From assembly GCA_016342645.1 (NCBI GenBank), contig JAEINX010000001.1:34582-98581 (forward strand): DNA of 64,000 nucleotides. Direction: 5' to 3'. Positions within the stretch are counted from its first letter, which is position 1; each line of letters begins with the position of its first letter. The notes beneath the pieces were generated by a model. It was not told the origin of the DNA. It saw only the letters and a program-made list of their open reading frames with translations, and made no database searches. Below, piece after piece: positions 5,662 to 26,016 of the stretch. The position numbers were made by a program, and so were the translations under genes. The DNA is from Bacteroidales bacterium (GTDB lineage Bacteria; Bacteroidota; Bacteroidia; Bacteroidales; JAEINX01).

Positions 5662-6102
5662 ATGATTCACACAAAAGTATTTAATACAACGAACAGACCA
5701 AATTTAAAAGAAAAAGAAAGCCTAATTGATTTTTTATTCGACAATTTACAAGAATATGGAGATGCTAAGTCAGACATAGAAAAAGCTGTTAATTACTCAC
5801 TAAAAGAAACAACTTCTTTTGGCGGTTTTGTTGTAGTTTCATTTTTAGAAAATGAGATATCAGGTGTAGTAGTGGTAAACCAAACCGGAATGAAAGGTTA
5901 TATTCCGGAAAATATCTTGGTCTATATTGCAACTCACAAAAATCATAGGGGAAAGGGAATCGGTAAAATTTTGATGCAAAAAACAATTGATTTGGCTGAA
6001 GGTAGTATTGCATTACATGTTGAGCCAGAAAACCCAGCTCGATTTTTATATGAAAAATTTGGATTTAGCAGCAAGTATATTGAAATGAGATTGAAAAAGT
6101 AG
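5662..6102 (+). CDS. GNAT family N-acetyltransferase
   Basis: 146 aa with the acetyl-CoA motif HRGKGIGKILM and a C-terminal YEKFGF. Confidence 0.8.
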   Translation: MIHTKVFNTTNRPNLKEKESLIDFLFDNLQEYGDAKSDIEKAVNYSLKETTSFGGFVVVSFLENEISGVVVVNQTGMKGYIPENILVYIATHKNHRGKGIGKILMQKTIDLAEGSIALHVEPENPARFLYEKFGFSSKYIEMRLKK

Positions 6103-6105
6103 ATT

Positions 6106-7536
6106 ATGAATGTTCACATAATTGATATTTTGATCTTTGTGATTTATATGATCGCATTGCTTGGTGTTGGGTTCTATTTTCTAAAACGCAATAAATCACA
6201 GGAAGACTATTATGTTGGAAGCCGAAAAATGTCTTCAGCACATATTGGCTTATCTGTTGTCGCTACGGATGTAGGGGGTGGATTTTCAATAGGCTTGGGC
6301 GGATTGGGATTTTTAATCGGACTGTCGGGTAGTTGGATGCTTTTTACAGGATTAGTTGGTGCCTGGATTAGTGCTGTTGTGCTCATTCCCAGAATATACC
6401 CACTGGCTAAAAAGCATAATTTTTTAAGCTTCCCCGAGGTCCTAAATCATTACTATAATGGTAAAGTAGCTATTATTGCGGGCATTATTTCCTTGATTGG
6501 CTATATTGGATTTACCAGCTCTCAAATTTTAGCCGGTGCAAAATTGGCATCCGCTACTTTTCCCTCAATAACAATTTTAGATGCAGTTTTATTAATGGGA
6601 GTTGTCGTAATTGGATATACTGTTCTTGGCGGACTTAAAGCCGTTATTTATACCGATACTATTCAATGGATAATTCTAATGGCTGGGCTGGTTTTAGTAG
6701 GCATTCCATTGAGCTTCATAAAAGTCGGGGGTTGGGAAGCAATTAGAACTTTTTTGCCCGATAGTTTCCTAAGTCTTACCAATATTAGTTTTGTTCAATT
6801 TGTTAATTGGCTAATTACCATCGTTCCTATTTGGTTTGTAGGCATGACCTTGTATCAAAGGATTTATGCCTCTAAAGATAAAAAAACAGCACAAAAAGCT
6901 TGGTTTATTGCAGGTTTGTTCGAATGGCCGGTAATGGCTTTTATGGGAGTTGGTTTAGGATTATTGGGTAGAGTAGCTTTTGAACAAGGAATGTTTACTG
7001 ATTTTGGATATGCACCTGGCAGTCCTATTGATGAAGAAATCGGGCTACCCTTACTCCTAACGCATATTTTCCCAATCGGATTGATGGGGCTTCTTATGTC
7101 ATCTTATTTCTCGGCAATAATGTCAACGGCAGATAGTTGTTTGATGGCAGCATCGGGTAATTTTACGACAGACATAATAAGGCTATCCAAACAAAATACC
7201 AAGAGTGTCAGATATTCACAAATAACAACCTTGGTCATTGGAATACTGGCTATCATTCTTGCTACAATGATGCAAAATGTACTTGATTTGATGTTATACT
7301 CTTATGGTTTTATGGTTTCAGGATTATTTGTCCCGGTTTTGGGTACTATGTTTTTAAAAAACCCTTCTGCGAAAGCAGCACTTTATTCAATGCTTTTTGG
7401 TGGAGGAACTACTTTGATTCTCATCTTAACCGAAATTACCTTGCCTTGTGGTTTAGATGCAAATTTCTTTGGGATAACACTTTCAGTAATTATTTTTGTT
7501 TTAATACAATCATTCCATAAGGGGAAAATTTATTGA
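6106..7536 (+). CDS. Sodium:solute symporter (SSS) family transporter
   Basis: About 12-13 TM helices with SSS-like motifs (YYVGSRKMS, GGLKAVIYTDTIQ). It starts 3 nt after the GNAT stop and ends in a TGA stop at 7534-7536. Confidence 0.85.
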   Translation: MNVHIIDILIFVIYMIALLGVGFYFLKRNKSQEDYYVGSRKMSSAHIGLSVVATDVGGGFSIGLGGLGFLIGLSGSWMLFTGLVGAWISAVVLIPRIYPLAKKHNFLSFPEVLNHYYNGKVAIIAGIISLIGYIGFTSSQILAGAKLASATFPSITILDAVLLMGVVVIGYTVLGGLKAVIYTDTIQWIILMAGLVLVGIPLSFIKVGGWEAIRTFLPDSFLSLTNISFVQFVNWLITIVPIWFVGMTLYQRIYASKDKKTAQKAWFIAGLFEWPVMAFMGVGLGLLGRVAFEQGMFTDFGYAPGSPIDEEIGLPLLLTHIFPIGLMGLLMSSYFSAIMSTADSCLMAASGNFTTDIIRLSKQNTKSVRYSQITTLVIGILAIILATMMQNVLDLMLYSYGFMVSGLFVPVLGTMFLKNPSAKAALYSMLFGGGTTLILILTEITLPCGLDANFFGITLSVIIFVLIQSFHKGKIY

Positions 7537-11649: not shown

Positions 11650-12183
11650 ATGTATTTAGATGGGTCAGAAACAAATAGATTGTTAATTAGAAAACTTGAA
11701 GTTTCGGATATAGCTATTTGGGAAACATTTTTTGAAAACAATAATTTTTTGCCATTTCTGGGATTAGATTTAACCTTAAATAAAAAAACCCAATCAAAAA
11801 ATTGGATTGAAAGGCAGTTGTGGAGATATGAGAATAATAAGTTTGGACATCATGCACTTATTGATAAACAAACTAATAATCTAATTGGACAATGTGGTTT
11901 GCTTACTCAGGAAATAGACAATAAAATAGAAACTGAAATAGGATACCATATTATTCCTGAATATTGGGGTAAAGGATACGCAACTGAAGCAGCAAAGAAA
12001 TTTCGTGATTATGCTTTTGAAAAAGACTTGTGTAATTCATTAATATCAATTATTGATATCAGAAATATTGCTTCACAGAAAGTGGCTGAAAAAAATGGTA
12101 TGAGAAAAACCAAACAGGTAAGATATAATAGTTTGGATGTTTATATCTATAGAATAGAAAAAGATGAATATAAAAACTTATAA
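11650..12183 (+). CDS. GNAT family N-acetyltransferase (RimJ/RimL-like)
   Basis: 177 aa with the RimJ-like pattern (LLIRKLEVSD, IGYHIIPEYWGKGYATEA, NIASQKVAEKNGM). Confidence 0.8.
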   Translation: MYLDGSETNRLLIRKLEVSDIAIWETFFENNNFLPFLGLDLTLNKKTQSKNWIERQLWRYENNKFGHHALIDKQTNNLIGQCGLLTQEIDNKIETEIGYHIIPEYWGKGYATEAAKKFRDYAFEKDLCNSLISIIDIRNIASQKVAEKNGMRKTKQVRYNSLDVYIYRIEKDEYKNL

Positions 12184-12188
12184 CAAAT

Positions 12189-12545
12189 ATGAATAATCAG
12201 AATATTTCATTTCAAACCATTGATTGGACAAAAGTTCTAAAGACAGAACACAAAGGCGAAACCGGAGTTGCGTATTGGCAAACCAAGCAATTTCAAGGTT
12301 TACGGCTTAGAATAGTTGAATATTCTAAAGGCTATATTGCTGACCATTGGTGTGAAAAAGGACACATTGTGCATTGTTTGGAAGGAGACTTTACGAGCGA
12401 ACTCATAAATGGTAAAAAATTTAATTTAACAAAAGGAATGAGCTATGTAGTTTCAGATGAGTTAAGTTCGCATCGCTCAGTTACAAAAAATGGAGTCAAG
12501 TTATTGATTATTGACGGAGATTTTTTAAAACTCAAAACCGAATAG
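12189..12545 (+). CDS. Small cupin-fold protein
   Basis: 118 aa with a beta-rich cupin-like pattern and an ADHWCEKGHIVHCLEG metal-site-like motif. Confidence 0.6.
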   Translation: MNNQNISFQTIDWTKVLKTEHKGETGVAYWQTKQFQGLRLRIVEYSKGYIADHWCEKGHIVHCLEGDFTSELINGKKFNLTKGMSYVVSDELSSHRSVTKNGVKLLIIDGDFLKLKTE

Positions 12546-16486: not shown

Positions 16487-19400
16487 TTATAAAATTATAA
16501 GTTTTTGAATTTTAAAGTTATTATCCGATTGAATTTTAACATAATAAACTCCGGTTTTCAAATCCGAAATATTTATTGAATGAGAAATATCACTTTTAAA
16601 AAGAAGCTGCTCACCAAGCGAGTTAAAAATTGTTATTGAAAGCCGGGAATCTGCAGGCAAAAAATAAATAATATCACGGGCAGGATTAGGATAAAATGAT
16701 AGCTTTTCTTTTTGAGAATTTATTGAAGATAAAGATTTTTCAACATTGATAACACTATAAAAACCATCATCTGTGGGATAAACTTTTTCAATGTATGCTT
16801 CATCATTATCACTTATCATTTCATATTCAAATGGAATTATTGATTGAGTTGAAAAATCCCAAACTTTTAAAATTATTTGATTACCTGATTTATATCCTCC
16901 TTCGGAATTAGTTGTACTAAAAACCGAAAGTTCATTATCAAAAACATTTTGAGAGTTGATTTTGACTGCACCGATAATATTATTGCCTTCAAAAGCAGCT
17001 ATTTCATCACCAATTTCCAAACCTGAAACATAAATCGTGAAAACAGGATCTGCTGCGTTTCCACCTTCGAAATCGAAATGCACAGGTTTTAAATTTTCTG
17101 CTCCCGCAAATTTTTCCTTTGAATCAGGATAAATCAGAATATCCGAATCATTCATTTTTACGAGATAGCCCTCTTTTTGATTTAGGTTTCCAATTCCATT
17201 TACCCATACAGGGCCAATTTTGCGAAGCATATTACCGCTTGAATTTCTAACAAAATTTAGATTGTCTAAAACATCATTAAAAGCCACTAAGGCATCCATT
17301 TGATTTGTTCGCAAATAACTAATAAATTGGTAACCGCTTAAAAGTCCAATAGGAGTTTGAGGATCAATAAATTCTCCTGCCACTTCAAAACTGTCGGCAG
17401 AATTCATTTTAACCAAATATCCTTCGGTTGTAATCCAATCACCGATTCCATTCACCCATACAGGCCCGATTTTTCGAAGCATGTTTCCTTCTGAATTTCT
17501 TACAAAATCAAGATTGCTGTTTAGAATATCCGATAAAACCTGAACCATTTCCGGATTATCAGGAATTAAATTTGAAGAAATGATTTGATAACCTGCATTT
17601 AAATCAAATTCAAGCATATGAGTTCCGGGTAATATTTCGATTTGCCATATAATTTCATCAGTTTGATTATTCGGAACATTATCACTAACAATGGCTGTTA
17701 GCGTATGCTCGCCAACATTTGATTCTTCGGCAAGTATTGAATAGCTTGAAATTTCTGAAACTAATTCATCATCAAACATCCAACTGTAAATTAAATTGTC
17801 ATTCTCGGGATCCGAAGCTACAATCGAAAAGTCGATAGTTTCGCCAAGCTGCATCGAAATATTTAATTGTTCGGGTTCATAACTAATGATTTCAGGAGGT
17901 AAGTTTGGTAAAACAAAAGCTTGGTTTGGAGTCATTCCGCTTACTGGCATCGTTGTTGAAACATAAGGTTCGAAAAATGCATAAACCTTCGATAAAGTGG
18001 GATGATTTCCTGTTGAGTTTCCTAAGGGGAATGATTTAGGAATTATTTGATTATCTTCTTCAGAAATATGAACTGAAATAACTATTCCCTGAGGGTTGTT
18101 GAGAGAGTTCCACGGAATTGATATTTCCGTCAATCCGTTTTCCTGCCAGCCTTCATAAGAATTGCATCCTGCACCTCCCGGATATTGCCAGCCTTTTGCT
18201 TCCCATTTATTTAATTGGATTGAGCCTCCGCCACCTTCGATTGCTACTTGATATTCCGGCAGGAAAGGATCTGCAAAATCAACTCTTCCCCATGAACCTG
18301 TGGAAGCTCCGCTTCCTGAAATTTGATCGGTGTCGATATTTACAAAAAGATCACCTTCTGAATTCAGATCAAATTCATAAAAACCTATATAAAGATTTTG
18401 GTCGTCCCAGGTTATAAAAACCGAATATTCATCAAAATCCATTAATTCAGTTTCAGGATCAAAATCGTTTGTACCGTCAATATTTACTGAATGGGGTGTT
18501 GAACCGGATAAAGTCGTAAAATTCGCAATGTTTTCTCCTTCAATTTGATTACCGTTTAAATCCATTATGTTCTCTGCAATAATCTGTCCTGCATCACCGG
18601 GTATCCAATTTTCCTGAATGTTTAGGTGAACTTTTCGCCAATCCGATTGACGAACAGCCGAAACCAAAGTGTAATTATTTGAAAAAGAAACAAGCGAATA
18701 ATTTGTTATATTTTGAGAAGTTGCGAGATCGACAGCTTCGCTAAAAGTTAATTCAACAGTATTTTGATCAATTTGAAAAGCCAGGTCATTTAATTGCGGA
18801 GGTATGAAATCCATGTTTTGAGCGGCAAGAATATTTAATTCAGGTACAACTGTTCCCGAAGGCGTTGAAGTCGGGCCTGCAAATAATCTTGTATTAAATT
18901 GATTATATCCTGTTATTTCATCACCTTTAACCAAAGTTCCTTCGAACTCAATATTGTGATTAGCCCCACCATTTCCGAGTATCAATGCAACAGTTGCTCC
19001 TGAAGCTGAATTTCGTTGGCCGCAATATGAGCCGTAATCACCCCAGATTCTTTGTATGTGATCTTTACCCGACCAGATTAAGTCCATCAGACCGGGCGAC
19101 CAACCTGATTTTATATATCCGTTTCCATCAAAAAAGTCGTAATAAACATCAAGATAATTAACTTCGGAAGTTAGTTCAATGGTTTTATTTACACCCGATT
19201 GCGAGAAGTTAACCCTGGCTATATCGCCGGAACTTTGCAGGATATCAATTTCATAAATTGAGTTCTGTTGATTAGGATAAACATCGGAAAGTGCTGCAAC
19301 ATGATTGTTGGAGTTTTCATTATAATCGCCATCGGTTTCAGCCCAGTAAGCCATATCTGATCCAACCACGGAATAAGCTACTCCCATATCGTTTTTATAA

Positions 19401-21217
19401 AATAACCAGTTTATTTTCCCTCCGATACTTTCGAAAACAGCGAAAATTTTATCGTTATGAATTACAACTTCATCTACCCCATCATGATCAACATCATTGT
19501 AAAAAGCAGCAGGGCCTGCCGAATATTGTCCGTCTGCCCATCGGGAGGCTTCGGCATAAACATTTGCATTTTTAATATGAGCGGAATAACGATGCTCCCA
19601 ATCGGCAATTTCTCCATCGGTATGCCAGCCGGTTTCATGTAGATTAATCATAAGAATATACCAGGCAAGTTGAGCCAAATTATTATCGGGGGCTGTCATA
19701 ATGTTATTATAAGCATCGCTCCAAACGTATCCATAATTCCATTTAGGTTCATGAAAATCGGAATGAGAAGCTGTTGAAGCCCAATTTATATACCAGCTAT
19801 TATTGCTTCCGCCATATCCTCCTTCACCACCGAGAAGACCGTAAGTTCCGGGTGTGATCTCAGCACCTGTACCATTAAAATCGGAATTCATCATAGCATC
19901 TTCTAATTTCCAAACATTAACACCCGGATAATTATCATGGCAATACCATAAAACACTTTCATAATTGTCGAGGAAGAAAGTTCCGTCATGTTCATTCATT
20001 TCGGCAGCAACTTCCCAATCGGTTCCATAAACGCAAATATTATATTGTCCGATACCTGCAATTTGATTCTTTGCTGCCGTAGCATTATAATGCATATTAC
20101 CAACAAAGGTATTATTAATAGGGATAACTCTTAAATCCACTCCCGAACCATTATTCATCCAATGTATCTTCCGGTTATCGTAGCCGTTAAGATGAGGCCC
20201 GTCATCCAAAACCACTCCCCAAACACCGTGTTGTTGCCAATTGTCGCCAAGCCAGTCAATCACTCCTGCATCGGGATAACTTCCCGGTGCAAGCCATACA
20301 CGCTCGGGAATCCAGGCTGTACGGGGTTCATAATTATACCTATAATCAACCATATCGCATTCAACACCTACCGACCAATTATTCATATTGTTATTGGTAA
20401 AGGGCATAATATGTTGCCCGAGAGCAGAGGTCATCATTGAAACAATGCCCTGTGAGGCAAGGTTAGTCAGCCAATCATTAAATTCAGGATTATGCCATTG
20501 TGCGGCAGGCATCAATGTGCCTGACATATGAAAATTTCCCGGAGTTGAAGTTGCCTCGTGTACCTGTAAAACTTCATCGAAACCACTACCTTCCAAACCA
20601 CTTTGTCCGTTGGGGCTACCATAAAAAACTTCAGTATATGTGAGTCCCTGATTGCCGTGATGGACAAAGGCACAATTTCCGTTTGCATCAATATTTTTTC
20701 CGTTGGAATGGAAATCATCAGCTTGTTTTCCATCAACAAATATTGTTAAATGAAATTCCATATCCTCAGGTTTTGTATCTGATGCAATATTGGTTTGCAT
20801 TTCCCAAAGATTTAAGTCGGGTGTACGCAGTTGATAAGTTTCATCTTTTGACATTTCCTTTATTTTTAGATCGAAATGCCTGTCAAGAATTATATTTTCA
20901 TTGAATTTATTATTTATTTTTAATTCAAGAAATACATCTGAATTTTCAAAAAGGTCTTCAACAATCTCGTTATGGTTTCTGATAACCATATTATCGAAGG
21001 TAATTCTAAGAAATAATTGTTCGCCATCGGTTTTAGCAAAAACCGAACTGATATCTCCTGTTTGGGTATTACAATCCCCAATTTCATCAAAATCTATAAT
21101 ATCGGATTTCCCCCAAAATTTCACATCTCCGCTAATAATTTGTCCAAAAGATAACTTAGCTGAAAAAGACAGTAAAATTATCATTATAAAAAAGTAAAAA
21201 AGTTTGTTTTTTTTCAT
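16487..21217 (-). CDS. Giant secreted GH57-like glycoside hydrolase with Ig-like domains, shared cassette and T9SS CTD
   Basis: Signal peptide. FVHHGNQ, WIPERVW and VLDDGPH resemble GH57 conserved regions I, III (nucleophile Glu) and IV (acid/base Asp). Ig/PKD-like segments follow, then cassette A/B, the GGNAAD domain and a CTD (LSFYPNP...YYVKI). Confidence 0.6.
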   Translation of the reverse strand: MKKNKLFYFFIMIILLSFSAKLSFGQIISGDVKFWGKSDIIDFDEIGDCNTQTGDISSVFAKTDGEQLFLRITFDNMVIRNHNEIVEDLFENSDVFLELKINNKFNENIILDRHFDLKIKEMSKDETYQLRTPDLNLWEMQTNIASDTKPEDMEFHLTIFVDGKQADDFHSNGKNIDANGNCAFVHHGNQGLTYTEVFYGSPNGQSGLEGSGFDEVLQVHEATSTPGNFHMSGTLMPAAQWHNPEFNDWLTNLASQGIVSMMTSALGQHIMPFTNNNMNNWSVGVECDMVDYRYNYEPRTAWIPERVWLAPGSYPDAGVIDWLGDNWQQHGVWGVVLDDGPHLNGYDNRKIHWMNNGSGVDLRVIPINNTFVGNMHYNATAAKNQIAGIGQYNICVYGTDWEVAAEMNEHDGTFFLDNYESVLWYCHDNYPGVNVWKLEDAMMNSDFNGTGAEITPGTYGLLGGEGGYGGSNNSWYINWASTASHSDFHEPKWNYGYVWSDAYNNIMTAPDNNLAQLAWYILMINLHETGWHTDGEIADWEHRYSAHIKNANVYAEASRWADGQYSAGPAAFYNDVDHDGVDEVVIHNDKIFAVFESIGGKINWLFYKNDMGVAYSVVGSDMAYWAETDGDYNENSNNHVAALSDVYPNQQNSIYEIDILQSSGDIARVNFSQSGVNKTIELTSEVNYLDVYYDFFDGNGYIKSGWSPGLMDLIWSGKDHIQRIWGDYGSYCGQRNSASGATVALILGNGGANHNIEFEGTLVKGDEITGYNQFNTRLFAGPTSTPSGTVVPELNILAAQNMDFIPPQLNDLAFQIDQNTVELTFSEAVDLATSQNITNYSLVSFSNNYTLVSAVRQSDWRKVHLNIQENWIPGDAGQIIAENIMDLNGNQIEGENIANFTTLSGSTPHSVNIDGTNDFDPETELMDFDEYSVFITWDDQNLYIGFYEFDLNSEGDLFVNIDTDQISGSGASTGSWGRVDFADPFLPEYQVAIEGGGGSIQLNKWEAKGWQYPGGAGCNSYEGWQENGLTEISIPWNSLNNPQGIVISVHISEEDNQIIPKSFPLGNSTGNHPTLSKVYAFFEPYVSTTMPVSGMTPNQAFVLPNLPPEIISYEPEQLNISMQLGETIDFSIVASDPENDNLIYSWMFDDELVSEISSYSILAEESNVGEHTLTAIVSDNVPNNQTDEIIWQIEILPGTHMLEFDLNAGYQIISSNLIPDNPEMVQVLSDILNSNLDFVRNSEGNMLRKIGPVWVNGIGDWITTEGYLVKMNSADSFEVAGEFIDPQTPIGLLSGYQFISYLRTNQMDALVAFNDVLDNLNFVRNSSGNMLRKIGPVWVNGIGNLNQKEGYLVKMNDSDILIYPDSKEKFAGAENLKPVHFDFEGGNAADPVFTIYVSGLEIGDEIAAFEGNNIIGAVKINSQNVFDNELSVFSTTNSEGGYKSGNQIILKVWDFSTQSIIPFEYEMISDNDEAYIEKVYPTDDGFYSVINVEKSLSSINSQKEKLSFYPNPARDIIYFLPADSRLSITIFNSLGEQLLFKSDISHSINISDLKTGVYYVKIQSDNNFKIQKLIIL
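16736..17614 (-). repeat. Shared C-terminal cassette copy 2 (A+B 17126-17614, GGNAAD domain 16736-17086)
   Basis: FVRNSEGNMLRKIGPVWVNGIGDW and FVRNSSGNMLRKIGPVWVNGIGNL, then FDFEGGNAADPVFTIYVSGLEIGDEIAAF. Confidence 0.85.
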
Positions 21218-21392
21218 AAGAGTTTAAATTATTGAATATCAAAAATATTCCCTATTAATTATTACAAAAATAATAAAAATTCAGGTTTTGATAATTAAAA
21301 AACTATAAATTTATTTTTTTAGTATAAAAGTTTTTTTTTAATTTCGTTCTTTAAAAATTGAAAATATTGGATTGTTAATTGAATTTATAGTT

Positions 21393-23324
21393 ATGAAAAA
21401 ATTGATACTAGTATTATTTATATTTGTTTCAATCGAAGGGTTTTCGACAATATCTTGGATGGGTAATCATTCAGCAAATCAATCAAGTAGTTCTCAAGAT
21501 GTAACATTTTATGTTGAAATGTATGATAATTATGACGGGTGTCATGCAGAAGTAGGTATATATTATAACGATTCTTGGAATTTACACACAATGTCTTATC
21601 AAGGTCCAAGTGGTAATAATTCAACTTGGTCCGTTACTTTTACTGTACCATCTGGTTCTCATAACTATTACTATCATGGTTGGGATGATTGGGGAGCGAA
21701 TGTTTGGGATAATAATGGTGGTTCTAATTATACTATAAATGTTATTGCTGCAACAACCACAACTGATGGAAACTGGAATACTGGAAGTACATGGAGTTGG
21801 GGAGTTGTTCCAACAAGTGATGATATAGTAATAAATAATAATGTTAATTTAGATATTGATGTATCCATTTCCTCTTTAACTATTAATTCAGGTAAATCGT
21901 TGACAATAAATCAAGGTAAAGGTCTAACAGTTTCTGGAACACTTACAAATAGTGCAGGAGAAAGTGGGTTAGTAATTTATTCAGATGCCACAGGAAGCGG
22001 CTCCCTTATAACAGACCAAGCTGTTTCCGTAACTTGTCAAAGATATATTCCTCAATTTAGTAAAGGCACAACCGGCATGCATTTTCTTTCTTCACCTGTT
22101 GCTGCTCAAAATATAAGTACTGAGTTCTTTAATGTAGCAACACCGGTACCGACTGGAGTGGATTTTTTCTACTTTAATGAAGAACATAATTACTGGATAA
22201 ATATTAAAAATGGAACTGCTTATAACCAGGGAGCAACATGGGAACACTTTTCCAATGATGCTAATCCTTCATTTACAGTTGGAAAAGGTTATCTCGTTGG
22301 TTATAATACAAATGTAACAAAAGATTTTGCCGGTACGTTAAATACAGGAAATAAAACTCCGACCATAACTTATACATCTGGAGAAGGAGATGGATGGAAT
22401 TTGATTGGAAATCCTTACCCATCGGCTATAGATTGGGATGAGGAAACCTGGAGTCGTACAAATGTTGACGGGACTGTTTATGTATATGACGGAACAGCAG
22501 GTCAATACATTAGCTGGAATGGCACAACAGGAGGTTTGGATGGAGGAATTATTCCTGCAATGCAGGGCTTTTTAGTAAAAGCAAATGCTGCATCTCCTTC
22601 AATAACAATTCCCACGGCATCACGAGTACATAGTTCTCAGGCTTATTATAAATCATCTGAAACAATTAAAGACCTTTTAGTATTGAATGCAGCAGGAAAC
22701 GATTATGAAGATAATATTTATATTAATTTTAACGAAAATGCAAGTATCGGTTTTGACAACGAATTTGATGCTTATAAACGTTTTGGAACAGAAGAAGCAC
22801 CACAATTTTATTCAATAATTCCTGATGATATTCTATCTATAAATGTGTTACCCTATTCGGATGAGGAGGTACTAATACCATTAGGATTGGAAGTAGGGAC
22901 TGAAGGCGAATATGTGATATCTGTTAAGGAAAATACGTTTATTGAAACTGTACAAATTTATTTTGAAGATTTGGAAAACGGGGAAAAAACAGAACTGAAA
23001 ACCTCTACAAGTTATGCGTTTACTTCACATCCTGACGATGATCCTGAACGTTTTATGCTTCACTTTTTTGGTGTAAGTGGAATTGAAAACTCATATCAAA
23101 CGAATGAAAGACAATTCTATGTTTATAATAACACTATAAATATTATTAGCGAAGAATTGCAATCAGGAACAATACAAGTTTTCGATATGCTTGGCCAAAA
23201 AGTAATGGAAAAAGAATATTCAGGCCACGATAATTCAATAAATCTTAATTTACTTCCTGCTATTTATATTGTTAGAATAATTTCAGGAGAAAATATAGTT
23301 AGCGGGAAAATTCACATTGATTAA
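21393..23324 (+). CDS. T9SS-secreted protein, N-terminal CBM25/53-like beta-sandwich, unknown central domain (paralog 1)
   Basis: Signal peptide from the ATG at 21393 (the track begins at TTG 21372). VWDNNGGSNYTINV resembles the end of CBM25/53 starch-binding modules. The GWNLIGNPYPSAIDW core and the T9SS CTD ...IYIVRIISGENIVSGKIHID follow. Confidence 0.75.
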   Translation: MKKLILVLFIFVSIEGFSTISWMGNHSANQSSSSQDVTFYVEMYDNYDGCHAEVGIYYNDSWNLHTMSYQGPSGNNSTWSVTFTVPSGSHNYYYHGWDDWGANVWDNNGGSNYTINVIAATTTTDGNWNTGSTWSWGVVPTSDDIVINNNVNLDIDVSISSLTINSGKSLTINQGKGLTVSGTLTNSAGESGLVIYSDATGSGSLITDQAVSVTCQRYIPQFSKGTTGMHFLSSPVAAQNISTEFFNVATPVPTGVDFFYFNEEHNYWINIKNGTAYNQGATWEHFSNDANPSFTVGKGYLVGYNTNVTKDFAGTLNTGNKTPTITYTSGEGDGWNLIGNPYPSAIDWDEETWSRTNVDGTVYVYDGTAGQYISWNGTTGGLDGGIIPAMQGFLVKANAASPSITIPTASRVHSSQAYYKSSETIKDLLVLNAAGNDYEDNIYINFNENASIGFDNEFDAYKRFGTEEAPQFYSIIPDDILSINVLPYSDEEVLIPLGLEVGTEGEYVISVKENTFIETVQIYFEDLENGEKTELKTSTSYAFTSHPDDDPERFMLHFFGVSGIENSYQTNERQFYVYNNTINIISEELQSGTIQVFDMLGQKVMEKEYSGHDNSINLNLLPAIYIVRIISGENIVSGKIHID

Positions 23325-23344
23325 AAAACTTGAAAAATATAATT

Positions 23345-23581
23345 ATGAAAACCAAATTTAGAATATTAATATTAAGCTTTTTAATAGCAGGAGCTACCTT
23401 GATTTCATCAAACATTTCTGCTCAAACCGATCCCCCTCCACCTCCTCCCTCGGGACATGGAGGATCAACAAATCAAACTCCGGGTGGCAGTGCACCAGTT
23501 GGAAGTGGGCTATTTATTCTTATTGGTTTAGGTGCCATTTATGGATCGAAAAAATATATTTCTAAAAAGAAGAAAGACTAA
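23345..23581 (+). CDS. Small protein: signal peptide + PPPPPPSGHGGS Pro/Gly-rich linker + TM helix + Lys-rich tail (paralog 1)
   Basis: MKTKFRILILSFLIAGATLISSNISAQ / TDPPPPPPSGHGGSTNQTPGGSAPVGSG / LFILIGLGAIYG / SKKYISKKKKD. ATG at 23345 (the track begins at TTG 23330), 20 nt after the upstream stop. Confidence 0.65.
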   Translation: MKTKFRILILSFLIAGATLISSNISAQTDPPPPPPSGHGGSTNQTPGGSAPVGSGLFILIGLGAIYGSKKYISKKKKD

Positions 23582-23606
23582 AGTTATTAATTAAAAAATT
23601 ACAATC

Positions 23607-25538
23607 ATGAAAAAATTTACTTTTTTACTTTTGTTATTGTTTTTATATGCAGCGACTCAGGCCTTGCCATGGGGGCATCGTTATGATGTAGAGCAAGCTA
23701 ATCAAAACATTACAGTTGATATTAATACTTCTTTCAGAGTTTCAGTTGAATGGGGTGAAGGTGATTGGGATGGTGCAATGGGTTCTGCATTTGGATATGG
23801 AACTTCAACTGATGGTACTAATTGGACATGGATTGAATTACCATGGTTTGAAGATGGCGAAGGAAGTAATAAAAGATGTAGAGCCGATGTAAGCATTAGT
23901 ACTCCGGGTAAATATTATTACGCTTATCGAATGATTAAAGCTGCTAATGGCGGTACATCATATTCATTTGGTAGTACTGATTGGGCGGAAAATTTGGCAG
24001 ACCTTAATGCCACATCTACCATTATTGTAGGTGAGGTAAGTAAAACTGACGGTAGCTGGGCAAATCCTGATACATGGGAAGATGGTACAAAACCTACAAA
24101 TTCCGATAATGTAGCTATTATGCATGATGTAAATATTTCTTCAAACGGAGAAGCAAAATCATTATATGTTTATTCAGGCAAAATATTTACAATTGAAGAT
24201 AATGGAAATATAACAATTACTGATGATCTAACAAATAATGGAACTTTCACAATTCAATCTAACCTTGATGGTACCGGTTCACTTATTACAACCAACGGAC
24301 CAATATCAGGAAGTGTTACTTTTCAAAGATATATTGTTGGGTATCCGGATGCAACTCATGGATGGCATTTTCTGTCCTCGCCTATTGAAACATTTAATAT
24401 TGCAGGTTCTGCATTTGATCCCGGTGCTGATGATGTAGTATATGGATGGGATGAAACAACAGGTATTTGGATGAATTCAAAAGCCGGTGATCCAACTCAA
24501 ATTGTATCGGGCACAGGTTACCTTACATCATGGAAATCAACCGACACAAAGAATTTTTCCGGCAACCTGAATAATTCTAATATACCCAAGTCAAATCTTT
24601 CATTTACAGATGGAAGTTCATATTCCGGCTGGCATTTGCTTGGAAATCCATTTCCATGCGCCTTATTATGGGATGCAACTTCGTGGAGCCGTTCAAATGT
24701 AAATGCTAATGCAAAAATTTGGAATGAAAGTAATGCAAGTTATTCCGATATCTCACAGAACGGAATCATACCTGCTACGCAAGGATTTATGGTTTATGTT
24801 ACCGGAAGTACAAACTCTTTGACCATTCCAACAGCTGACAGAACACATAACTCACAAGCATGGTACAAAGATGTAGATGTAAATACGATAAAACTTACAG
24901 CGATTGATCCTGAAGGAAGTACAGCACAAGAAAGCATAATAAAATTCAACGAAAATTCAACTACAGGATTTGATAATGAATTTGATTCTTACTTCCTTGC
25001 CGGATATGCTCCACAATTTTATTCAGTCATTAATGATGTAATTGCTGTTTCAACAAATACTTTACCTGAAATCTCAGAACAATTAAGTATTCCTTTCAGC
25101 TTTATAAAAAATTCATCTTCTAACTTTTATATTGAAGCTGAAGGCCTTGAAAATATTTTCCCCCAAACCTTAGTTTCGTTAGTTGATTTAAAAACAAACA
25201 CTACTCAAAATCTATTGGAAAATCCTGTTTATACTTTTGAATCTTCAGAAGGTGATGATGCTGAAAGGTTTTTAATACAATTTGGTGTTCTGGGCCTTGA
25301 AGAAGAAAACCTTGAAAATAAATTGAATTTCTACATTTACAACAATACTCTTAACATTGTTAATAACGACTTGCAAGCCGGCACAATACAACTTTTCGAT
25401 ATGATAGGCCAAAAAGTTATGGAGAAAAATTATTCAAGTGCTGATAACTCAATTAACATTAATTTACCTTCTGCTTATTATATTGTAAGAATAATTTCAG
25501 GAAAAAATATTGTTAATGGTAAAATACATATTGATTAA
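23607..25538 (+). CDS. T9SS-secreted protein (paralog 2 of 21393-23324)
   Basis: Same architecture with colinear motifs (GWHFLSSP, GWHLLGNPFPCALLWD, IPATQGFMV, TIPTADRTH) and a near-identical CTD ...YYIVRIISGKNIVNGKIHID. Confidence 0.75.
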   Translation: MKKFTFLLLLLFLYAATQALPWGHRYDVEQANQNITVDINTSFRVSVEWGEGDWDGAMGSAFGYGTSTDGTNWTWIELPWFEDGEGSNKRCRADVSISTPGKYYYAYRMIKAANGGTSYSFGSTDWAENLADLNATSTIIVGEVSKTDGSWANPDTWEDGTKPTNSDNVAIMHDVNISSNGEAKSLYVYSGKIFTIEDNGNITITDDLTNNGTFTIQSNLDGTGSLITTNGPISGSVTFQRYIVGYPDATHGWHFLSSPIETFNIAGSAFDPGADDVVYGWDETTGIWMNSKAGDPTQIVSGTGYLTSWKSTDTKNFSGNLNNSNIPKSNLSFTDGSSYSGWHLLGNPFPCALLWDATSWSRSNVNANAKIWNESNASYSDISQNGIIPATQGFMVYVTGSTNSLTIPTADRTHNSQAWYKDVDVNTIKLTAIDPEGSTAQESIIKFNENSTTGFDNEFDSYFLAGYAPQFYSVINDVIAVSTNTLPEISEQLSIPFSFIKNSSSNFYIEAEGLENIFPQTLVSLVDLKTNTTQNLLENPVYTFESSEGDDAERFLIQFGVLGLEEENLENKLNFYIYNNTLNIVNNDLQAGTIQLFDMIGQKVMEKNYSSADNSININLPSAYYIVRIISGKNIVNGKIHID

Positions 25539-25559
25539 AAATACTAAAAATATATAATT

Positions 25560-25796
25560 ATGAAAACCAAATTGAAAATTTTTGCAATAACTTTATTAGT
25601 AGCAGGTGCTACTTTGATGTCATCAAATATTAATGCCCAAACCGATCCTCCTCCTCCCCCGCCCTCTGGACATGGAGGCTCAAGCAATCAACCCCCAGGT
25701 GGTGGTGCACCAATTGGTGGTGGCTTATTTATACTACTTGGATTAGGTGTAGTTTATGGAGCAAAAAAATTGATTGTTAAGAAAGAAAAAGAGTAA
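25560..25796 (+). CDS. Small signal-peptide / Pro-Gly-rich / TM / Lys-rich protein (paralog 2)
   Basis: MKTKLKIFAITLLVAGATLMSSNINAQ / TDPPPPPPSGHGGSSNQPPGGGAPIGGG / LFILLGLGVVYG / AKKLIVKKEKE. It starts 21 nt after the upstream stop. Confidence 0.65.
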   Translation: MKTKLKIFAITLLVAGATLMSSNINAQTDPPPPPPSGHGGSSNQPPGGGAPIGGGLFILLGLGVVYGAKKLIVKKEKE

Positions 25797-25803
25797 GGTT
25801 TTA

Positions 25804-25884
25804 GATGGAATGTTGGAGTGGTGGAATAATGGAAAACAAACTCACAAGGTTTAAGTAACTTTCCACCATTCCACTACTCCATTC
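25804..25884 (+). other. Long imperfect hairpin (about 21-bp stem, 24-nt loop) downstream of the small gene
   Basis: Left arm ttggagtggtggaataatggaaa pairs with right arm tttccaccattccactactccaa-like sequence, with a 2-nt internal mismatch. A third attccactcc copy at 25905-25914 could pair alternatively. Confidence 0.5.
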
Positions 25885-26016
25885 TGCCAATAATTTTAGT
25901 TTTAATTCCACTCCGAAAAGGCATTTTTAATCATCTGGAATGTTTCTTTTTTCCTAATACTTAATAATTCTTCTTATAAGTTTTTCTTAACTTGCCGGCA
26001 AATTTCAATCAATTAA

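Follow-up and report, generated by a model that had tools for sequence, protein, structure and literature searches.

We analysed a stretch of 64,000 nucleotides from a Bacteroidales bacterium (GenBank assembly GCA_016342645.1, contig JAEINX010000001.1, positions 34,582 to 98,581 of the forward strand), referred to here as the window. Two genes for large proteins (big1 and big2), predicted to be T9SS (type IX secretion system) cargo, alternate in it with two genes for small proteins (small1 and small2). With moderate confidence, we propose that each small protein is a cargo-less precursor for the single XrtX-like exosortase encoded in this genome and, at the same time, a dedicated partner of the adhesin-like T9SS protein encoded directly upstream. 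An earlier note on this DNA had described four open reading frames (ORFs) in the order big-small-big-small. All four were recovered on the + strand, and are listed here together with a hairpin that follows them:

21393-23324, + strand: big1, predicted secreted adhesin-like protein of 643 aa from an ATG (alternative TTG start at 21372), with the T9SS C-terminal domain (CTD) at about nt 23127-23321
23345-23581, + strand: small1, 78 aa, with the sorting signal at about nt 23483-23578
23607-25538, + strand: big2, 643 aa, with the CTD at aa 572-643 (about nt 25320-25535)
25560-25796, + strand: small2, 78 aa, with the sorting signal at about nt 25698-25793
25814-25881, + strand: imperfect long hairpin directly 3' of the small2 stop codon

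The genome that contains the window is called G000, other genomes are numbered in the same way, and contigs carry the prefix C. We refer to the small proteins and their homologs as miniproteins.

The small proteins and their sorting signal

Both small proteins were built to a common plan, consisting of a signal peptide (...A|QTD), the mature segment PPPPPP-SGHGGS-xNQxPGG, the motif (G/S)AP[IV]G[GS]G, a hydrophobic helix with YG at its end and a tail rich in Lys; the linker, rich in Gly and opening with six Pro residues, was ~25 residues long. In small1 the order was signal peptide (...ISA|QTD), PPPPPPSGHGGS, GGSAPVGSG, transmembrane (TM) helix and KK-rich tail, and the signal of small2 read GGGAPIGGG - LFILLGLGVVYG - AKKLIVKKEKE. 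This confirmed the four-part design from which the earlier note had concluded that the small proteins are nearly bare tripartite sorting signals of the exosortase type. The PID-CTERM sorting domain (NF046080) was the best and sole NCBIfam match for both proteins, with scores of 16.4 bits (small1) and 23.7 bits (small2) that did not reach the cut-off of 26. When the genome was searched with this model in six frames, none of the seven matches exceeded the cut-off, the best being small2 at 25.4 bits. Relatives of the small proteins matched PF28310 weakly, a family that is named PID_CTERM in a gene-context table. The two proteins of the window carry P-I-G and P-V-G in place of Pro-Ile-Asp, the motif that gives PID-CTERM its name. 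The PIDGG motif was found in relatives with exosortases of a second sequence subtype (type 2), and AP[IL]DGG in some genomes with the subtype of G000 (type 1).

An alignment of 38 homologs revealed that A-P-I-G-x-G and Y-G of the signal are invariant. The Pro run and an HG..GN element were also well conserved, and the mature part always comprised ~20-30 residues and contained no Lys. The residue following the predicted signal-peptide cleavage site was Gln (A|Q) in both small proteins of the window and in 27 of the 38 relatives. The small ORFs were shown to be under purifying selection, with dN/dS values of 0.12-0.24 in comparisons to paralogs and orthologs (0.24 for small1 versus small2) at dS values of 0.45-2.3.

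When 1.84 billion cluster representatives (50% identity) were searched with a profile of the small family, 2,337 representatives matched with E <= 0.001, and for 813 the match reached E <= 1e-10. In the source annotations examined, almost no member of the family had a name. The best 150 of the 2,337 ranged from 62 to 155 aa, mostly 62-120 aa, with those of ~150 aa holding two copies of the domain, and these lengths indicate that the family is consistently cargo-less. Three of the ~150-aa representatives with a doubled domain were P0210, P0211 and P0278. Among the ways in which its reading could fail, the earlier note had named that the small ORFs might not be conserved in relatives, or that they might belong to a known, unrelated family of membrane proteins. 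Neither was the case: the frames are conserved, and no NCBIfam family other than PID-CTERM, itself below its cut-off, was matched.

A hidden Markov model of the C-terminal signal detected miniproteins only across G000 (five complete genes and two fragments at contig ends), and no large protein. G000 thus has at least seven miniprotein genes, a lower bound because contigs break inside the genes of this dispersed-repeat family; such breaks were seen at C43:20371-20460, C55:17771-17857, C65:3-89 and C105:1-222. In G072, miniprotein genes occurred as tandem doublets of an APLDGG type and an AP[VI]G type (G072:C1:216500-229800, at 5991-6482 and 11944-12403), at least the doublet at 5991-6482 lying directly behind a single big gene.

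The exosortase and its association with the miniproteins

The earlier note had found no sortase-like enzyme in the window. This was borne out, and a search of the genome (4.17 Mb, 93.5% complete) located exactly one exosortase-family gene, on another contig, encoding a protein of 201 aa (G000:C102:6338-6943). The enzyme passed two general models, scoring 56.5 bits with the exo_archaeo signature TIGR04178 (cut-off 23) and 31.4 bits with PF09721 (cut-off 25.7). Among the specific models, XrtX (NF046081) scored best at 89 bits, below its cut-off of 170, followed by XrtF (53.8 bits) and XrtY (39.6 bits). XrtX was also the best model for the exosortases of ten relatives, with scores of 80-136 bits, none of which exceeded the cut-off. 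Residues Cys102, Arg143 and His162 were invariant among 11 homologs. The exosortase homologs split into two sequence subtypes, and the G000 enzyme represents type 1, with the signature GCSGLKQ...PGPWKHKLW...SHD.

No match to the XrtX-associated membrane protein (NF046082) was obtained at E <= 1 in the G000 genome at its 93.5% completeness. The exosortase gene on C102 is flanked by genes for two uncharacterised membrane proteins (locus L008, 494-1429 and 2194-3477, both on the + strand), which are found again beside type-1 exosortases from other families. A polytopic protein of 427 aa with a very basic N-terminus is also present in G002, G072 and G137, and a coiled-coil protein of 311 aa with a single TM helix in G002 and G056. 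It is possible that these two proteins are accessory components that replace NF046082.

The presence of miniproteins was associated with that of the enzyme. Among 41 relatives, an exosortase homolog was found in 11 of the 11 credible miniprotein-positive genomes. When 151 genomes sampled evenly from the order were compared, an exosortase homolog was present in 34 of the 36 that have a miniprotein and in 27 of the 115 that lack one (odds ratio 55); when strong type-1-like matches only were counted, the fractions were 26/36 and 3/115. Gene linkage provides evidence that is independent of genome co-occurrence. A PIDGG miniprotein of 67-71 aa was encoded directly upstream of the exosortase gene in G010 and G039, and a big gene, a small gene and a type-1 exosortase gene were consecutive on one strand in G056. 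The exosortase gene lay within 4-5 kb of big+small units in G072, G121 and G137.

We also considered whether the subtype of the enzyme co-varies strictly with Asp or Gly in the motif of the miniprotein. The correspondence was perfect in the first 10 genomes and was then broken by G121, where the enzyme is of type 1 and the miniprotein carries APIDGG, and by G072, which has both APLDGG and APVGEG; the co-variation was therefore rejected.

The T9SS proteins and their pairing with miniproteins

Both large proteins passed the cut-off of the NCBIfam T9SS type A sorting domain (TIGR04183, cut-off 23), with scores of 32.2 bits for big1 and 26.2 bits for big2, and fell below that of the corresponding Pfam model (PF18962; 24.5 and 22.5 bits, cut-off 27). 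Scans of NCBIfam and Pfam gave no other family match for either protein. An alignment of the two over 566 aa showed 41% identity (E 3e-113), with near identity in the last ~20 residues, in agreement with the earlier description of colinear paralogs sharing a near-identical T9SS CTD. The AlphaFold2 model of big2 (mean pLDDT 85.3, pTM 0.74) predicted a beta-sandwich at the N-terminus, then a segment resembling a beta-helix, two further beta-sandwich domains and the T9SS CTD. Residues 572-643 of the model matched the CTD of NucA bound to the T9SS (8glk_D) with a target-normalised TM-score of 0.77 and a probability of 1.0, and matched the RgpB CTD as well. A fold search with the whole model returned just generic multi-beta-sandwich matches (TM ~0.1). 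Homologs had the C-terminal ~500 residues in common and carried variable N-terminal domains (LamG, beta-helix, fn3 or autotransporter-type repeats), and nothing resembling an enzyme was seen in the domain and fold analyses of the big proteins and their homologs. As judged by sequence and by the predicted structure, the big proteins are modular surface or adhesin-like T9SS cargo.

G000 encodes ~14 big paralogs, with members on contigs other than that of the window. All five small genes for which upstream sequence was assembled followed a big paralog (C65 twice, C145, C38 and C43). The earlier note had seen a conserved pairing in the duplication, and the pairing extends well beyond it: of 30 miniprotein genes that could be assessed in relatives belonging to other families, 23 lay directly 3' of a big-family homolog. 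The pairing depended on the type of motif, being found for 21 of 23 genes of the AP[IVL]G type and for 2 of 7 of the PIDGG type. A metagenome contig carried the same repeated big-small pairs, and the big module was present in 32 of the 36 miniprotein-positive genomes. The CTDs of big paralogs that have a small gene downstream were compared with those of paralogs that lack one, and no difference was seen.

In the window, the genes are separated by gaps of 20 nt (big1/small1), 25 nt (small1/big2) and 21 nt (big2/small2). The region of the hairpin (25797-25925) had a minimum free energy of -36.7 kcal/mol (z = -3.6), which was equalled by none of 200 shuffles, and the hairpin is probably the 3' end or terminator of a four-gene unit. 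The short gaps and the terminal hairpin are consistent with the operon suggested earlier. A scan for sigma-70 promoters performed no better than shuffled sequence (28 sites, shuffle mean 24). The flanking genes are unrelated to the unit: upstream, on the opposite strand, lies the gene for a GH57-like T9SS protein of 1576 aa, and downstream are radical SAM, GH3-family and LysE genes.

The small proteins were 71% identical to each other (55 of 78 residues). At the syntenic site of the sister species G002, only an ortholog pair of big2+small2 was present, with the big2 ortholog 77% identical. This indicates that the window holds two old paralogous units side by side and not a fresh duplication. 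The proposal of a tandemly duplicated unit thus stands as regards adjacent paralogous pairs, and does not stand as regards a recent tandem event. Synteny with G002 (G002:C8:122000-137000) runs through a CBM-repeat gene, lacI and the GH57 giant to big2+small2, and then stops; the locus in G002 lacks the big1+small1 unit and the genes found downstream in the window. The GH57-like protein (window 16487-21217, - strand) contains repeats of the form LDFVRNxxGxMLRKIGPxWVNGIG, which were also seen behind the big-family module in two paralogs on G000 contigs C16 and C172, whose CTDs differ in type from those of big1 and big2.

G000 has two full-length PorU genes in tandem (G000:C165:19453-26576), the products of which are 45% identical and scored 1315 and 1268 bits with the PorU model (cut-off 420). 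At least two PorU genes were found in 22 of 36 miniprotein-positive and 18 of 115 negative genomes (odds ratio 8.5), and tandem PorU pairs recurred often in miniprotein-bearing genomes of the order. In the PorU tree, 15 of 19 downstream tandem copies branched outside the canonical clade, which had 98% support, and most downstream copies formed a deep branch there. A dedicated PorU2 clade that tracks the miniprotein was considered and is retained as a lead only: the second PorU of G000 stems from a separate duplication of later date, and on the tree the genomes that have miniproteins group together, so that the enrichment is confounded by ancestry.

Proposed pathway, alternatives and known systems

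In the pathway that we favour, the Sec system would export the small precursor, which signal peptidase I would cut at A|Q. According to the Bacteroidetes Q-rule, a Gln that follows the signal-peptide cleavage site becomes pyroglutamate (PMC5837995, PMC10653852); cleavage would thus probably leave an N-terminal pyroglutamate, with a predicted mature start of pyroGlu-TDPPPPPPSGHGGS... The C-terminal helix would hold the precursor in the inner membrane, its Lys-rich tail facing the cytoplasm. The exosortase, using Cys102, Arg143 and His162, would cut in or just after GGGAP[IV]G and, by analogy to archaeosortase A and rhombosortase, which attach their substrates to lipids (PMC7468200), would transfer the Pro/Gly-rich peptide of ~25 residues to an acceptor. 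The resulting product would act together with the co-expressed T9SS cargo, most plausibly by holding or organising it at the cell surface.

A specific form of this pathway, which we regard as quite unlikely, is that the miniprotein is a gene-encoded surface anchor or adaptor of its own T9SS cargo. The peptide would reside on an envelope lipid or glycan, and the cargo would be coupled there by the T9SS attachment machinery, either in place of or alongside anionic lipopolysaccharide (LPS); the diverged PorU paralog could take part. In the known T9SS attachment, an amide bond links the C-terminus of the cargo with a free amine on the anchor (PMC7468200). Ligation of the cargo by PorU to the N-terminal amine of the small peptide was considered and is disfavoured, because Gln after the cleavage site predicts a blocked pyroglutamate and the mature part has no Lys. 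Deletion of xrtF in Flavobacterium johnsoniae affects colonisation and the formation of biofilms and zorbs in the same way as mutation of the T9SS attachment genes porU and porZ (PMC10936215), and this shared phenotype favours a cooperation of exosortase and T9SS sorting.

Several observations weigh against the proposal that the miniproteins are both exosortase substrates and partners of the big proteins. No exosortase was detected in G123, a 99% complete genome with three miniprotein genes, even with the general signature model, nor was one detected in G086, which has a miniprotein. The small proteins and the enzyme both fall under the curated PID-CTERM and XrtX cut-offs, and NF046082 was not found in G000. 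Most PIDGG-type miniproteins are not encoded behind a big gene. Among the 115 genomes without a miniprotein, 30 have the big module, and about half of the ~14 big paralogs of G000 have no small gene downstream. The adjacency raised in the earlier note therefore largely holds from the side of the small gene and is not obligate from that of the big gene; the dependence runs one way, and the big family does not need the miniprotein. The p-values for co-occurrence overstate the evidence and its independence, as the genomes compared are related.

Some of these points may indicate instead that the miniproteins are exosortase substrates which yield a general envelope peptide or lipopeptide, with no specific tie to the big proteins, and merely have the promoters of highly expressed surface-protein genes in common with them. 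The miniprotein genes of G010 and G039, which adjoin the exosortase gene with no big gene nearby, would fit this explanation, as would the loose placement of PIDGG-type genes, the big genes that occur without miniproteins, and the mature part of the small protein, a low-complexity Pro/Gly segment without a fold. However, 21 of the 23 AP[IVL]G-type genes in relatives lie behind one protein family and behind no other gene. The order is always big then small, with gaps usually of 4-180 nt, and the pairing persists in many families, at more than one locus of the same genome and on metagenome contigs. We therefore consider the general peptide unlikely.

A second alternative is that the small proteins are never cleaved, and are bitopic inner-membrane proteins that use a short periplasmic arm rich in Pro to escort or tether the big pre-protein ahead of its export by the T9SS, their likeness to sorting signals being only architectural. 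This would account for the miniproteins of G123 and G086 and for small-protein scores under the PID-CTERM cut-off. It is very unlikely in view of the enzyme being present in 34 of 36 miniprotein genomes, and adjoining the miniprotein gene or lying within ~5 kb of it in six. Moreover, in 38 sequences the strongest conservation was in the motif before the helix, where signals of the exosortase type are recognised, and such conservation would not be required for mere anchoring in the membrane. The idea that the small ORFs are chance or decaying frames between real genes, which their shortness, low complexity and lack of a name in almost all source annotations might suggest, is refuted by conservation and has next to no probability, given the low dN/dS at substantial dS, the 813 representatives at E <= 1e-10 with the best 150 of the family mostly at 62-120 aa, and the start, signal peptide and signal motif conserved across families.

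The closest known system of the locus is PID-CTERM/XrtX, as catalogued in NCBIfam and Pfam. We infer from their consecutive accessions that PID-CTERM (NF046080), XrtX (NF046081) and the XrtX-associated protein (NF046082) form one curated system; literature searches found no paper on PID-CTERM or XrtX. Like this system, the locus has very short secreted Bacteroidota proteins that bear the motif, TM helix and basic cluster, together with a small exosortase of ~200 aa for which XrtX is the top model; in relatives, a miniprotein gene lies directly upstream of that of the enzyme. It differs in the motif, which is GGGAP[IV]G[GS]G and not PIDGG, and in scores that stay below the cut-offs (16-25 bits for the small proteins, cut-off 26; 89 bits for the enzyme, cut-off 170). 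The G000 enzyme is of a distinct sequence subtype, NF046082 was not found, and the substrates are dispersed behind T9SS cargo genes, away from the enzyme. XrtF of F. johnsoniae is likewise a small exosortase of Bacteroidota; the G000 enzyme is not XrtF, since it scored under the cut-off of 90 with that model, and below its own XrtX score. The substrates of the Bacteroidota exosortases XrtF and XrtX are experimentally unidentified (PMC10936215).

In systems of the exosortase type, a polytopic membrane transpeptidase of the Cys type cleaves away the helix and links the C-terminus thus created to a second molecule, which is glycerophosphoethanolamine in the case of rhombosortase (PMC7468200). PEP-CTERM/exosortase (EpsH), PGF-CTERM/archaeosortase A and GlyGly-CTERM/rhombosortase all have the Sec signal, C-terminal motif, TM helix and basic tail seen here. 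Unlike the small proteins, in which ~25 Pro/Gly-rich residues stand without cargo, these signals are normally borne by folded cargo, and the genes studied here are in addition tied to cargo of another secretion system. As for the T9SS, the big proteins have a type A CTD by sequence and fold, and G000 has PorU, as in the PorU-dependent attachment to anionic LPS in Porphyromonas gingivalis and Tannerella forsythia; here, in contrast, the cargo gene brings its own miniprotein, and there are two PorU paralogs, 45% identical. To our knowledge, no protein-encoded partner of T9SS cargo has been described in the P. gingivalis and T. forsythia system. Exosortases are widespread, and we know of no bacterial exosortase for which the reaction product has been defined. 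A cargo-less substrate of ~25 residues is about the simplest handle for finding the acceptor of an exosortase, and the locus is a good entry point for experiments.

Should the anchor or adaptor form of the pathway be true, it would physically link two sorting systems that are thought to be separate, and would, for the first time, assign a substrate and a role to an exosortase of Bacteroidota. That the small genes keep their place behind a single family of T9SS surface proteins suggests a cooperation of exosortase sorting with type IX secretion in the construction of the Bacteroidota cell surface. Such cooperation, if true, would change the view of how T9SS cargo is attached to the surface outside Porphyromonas.

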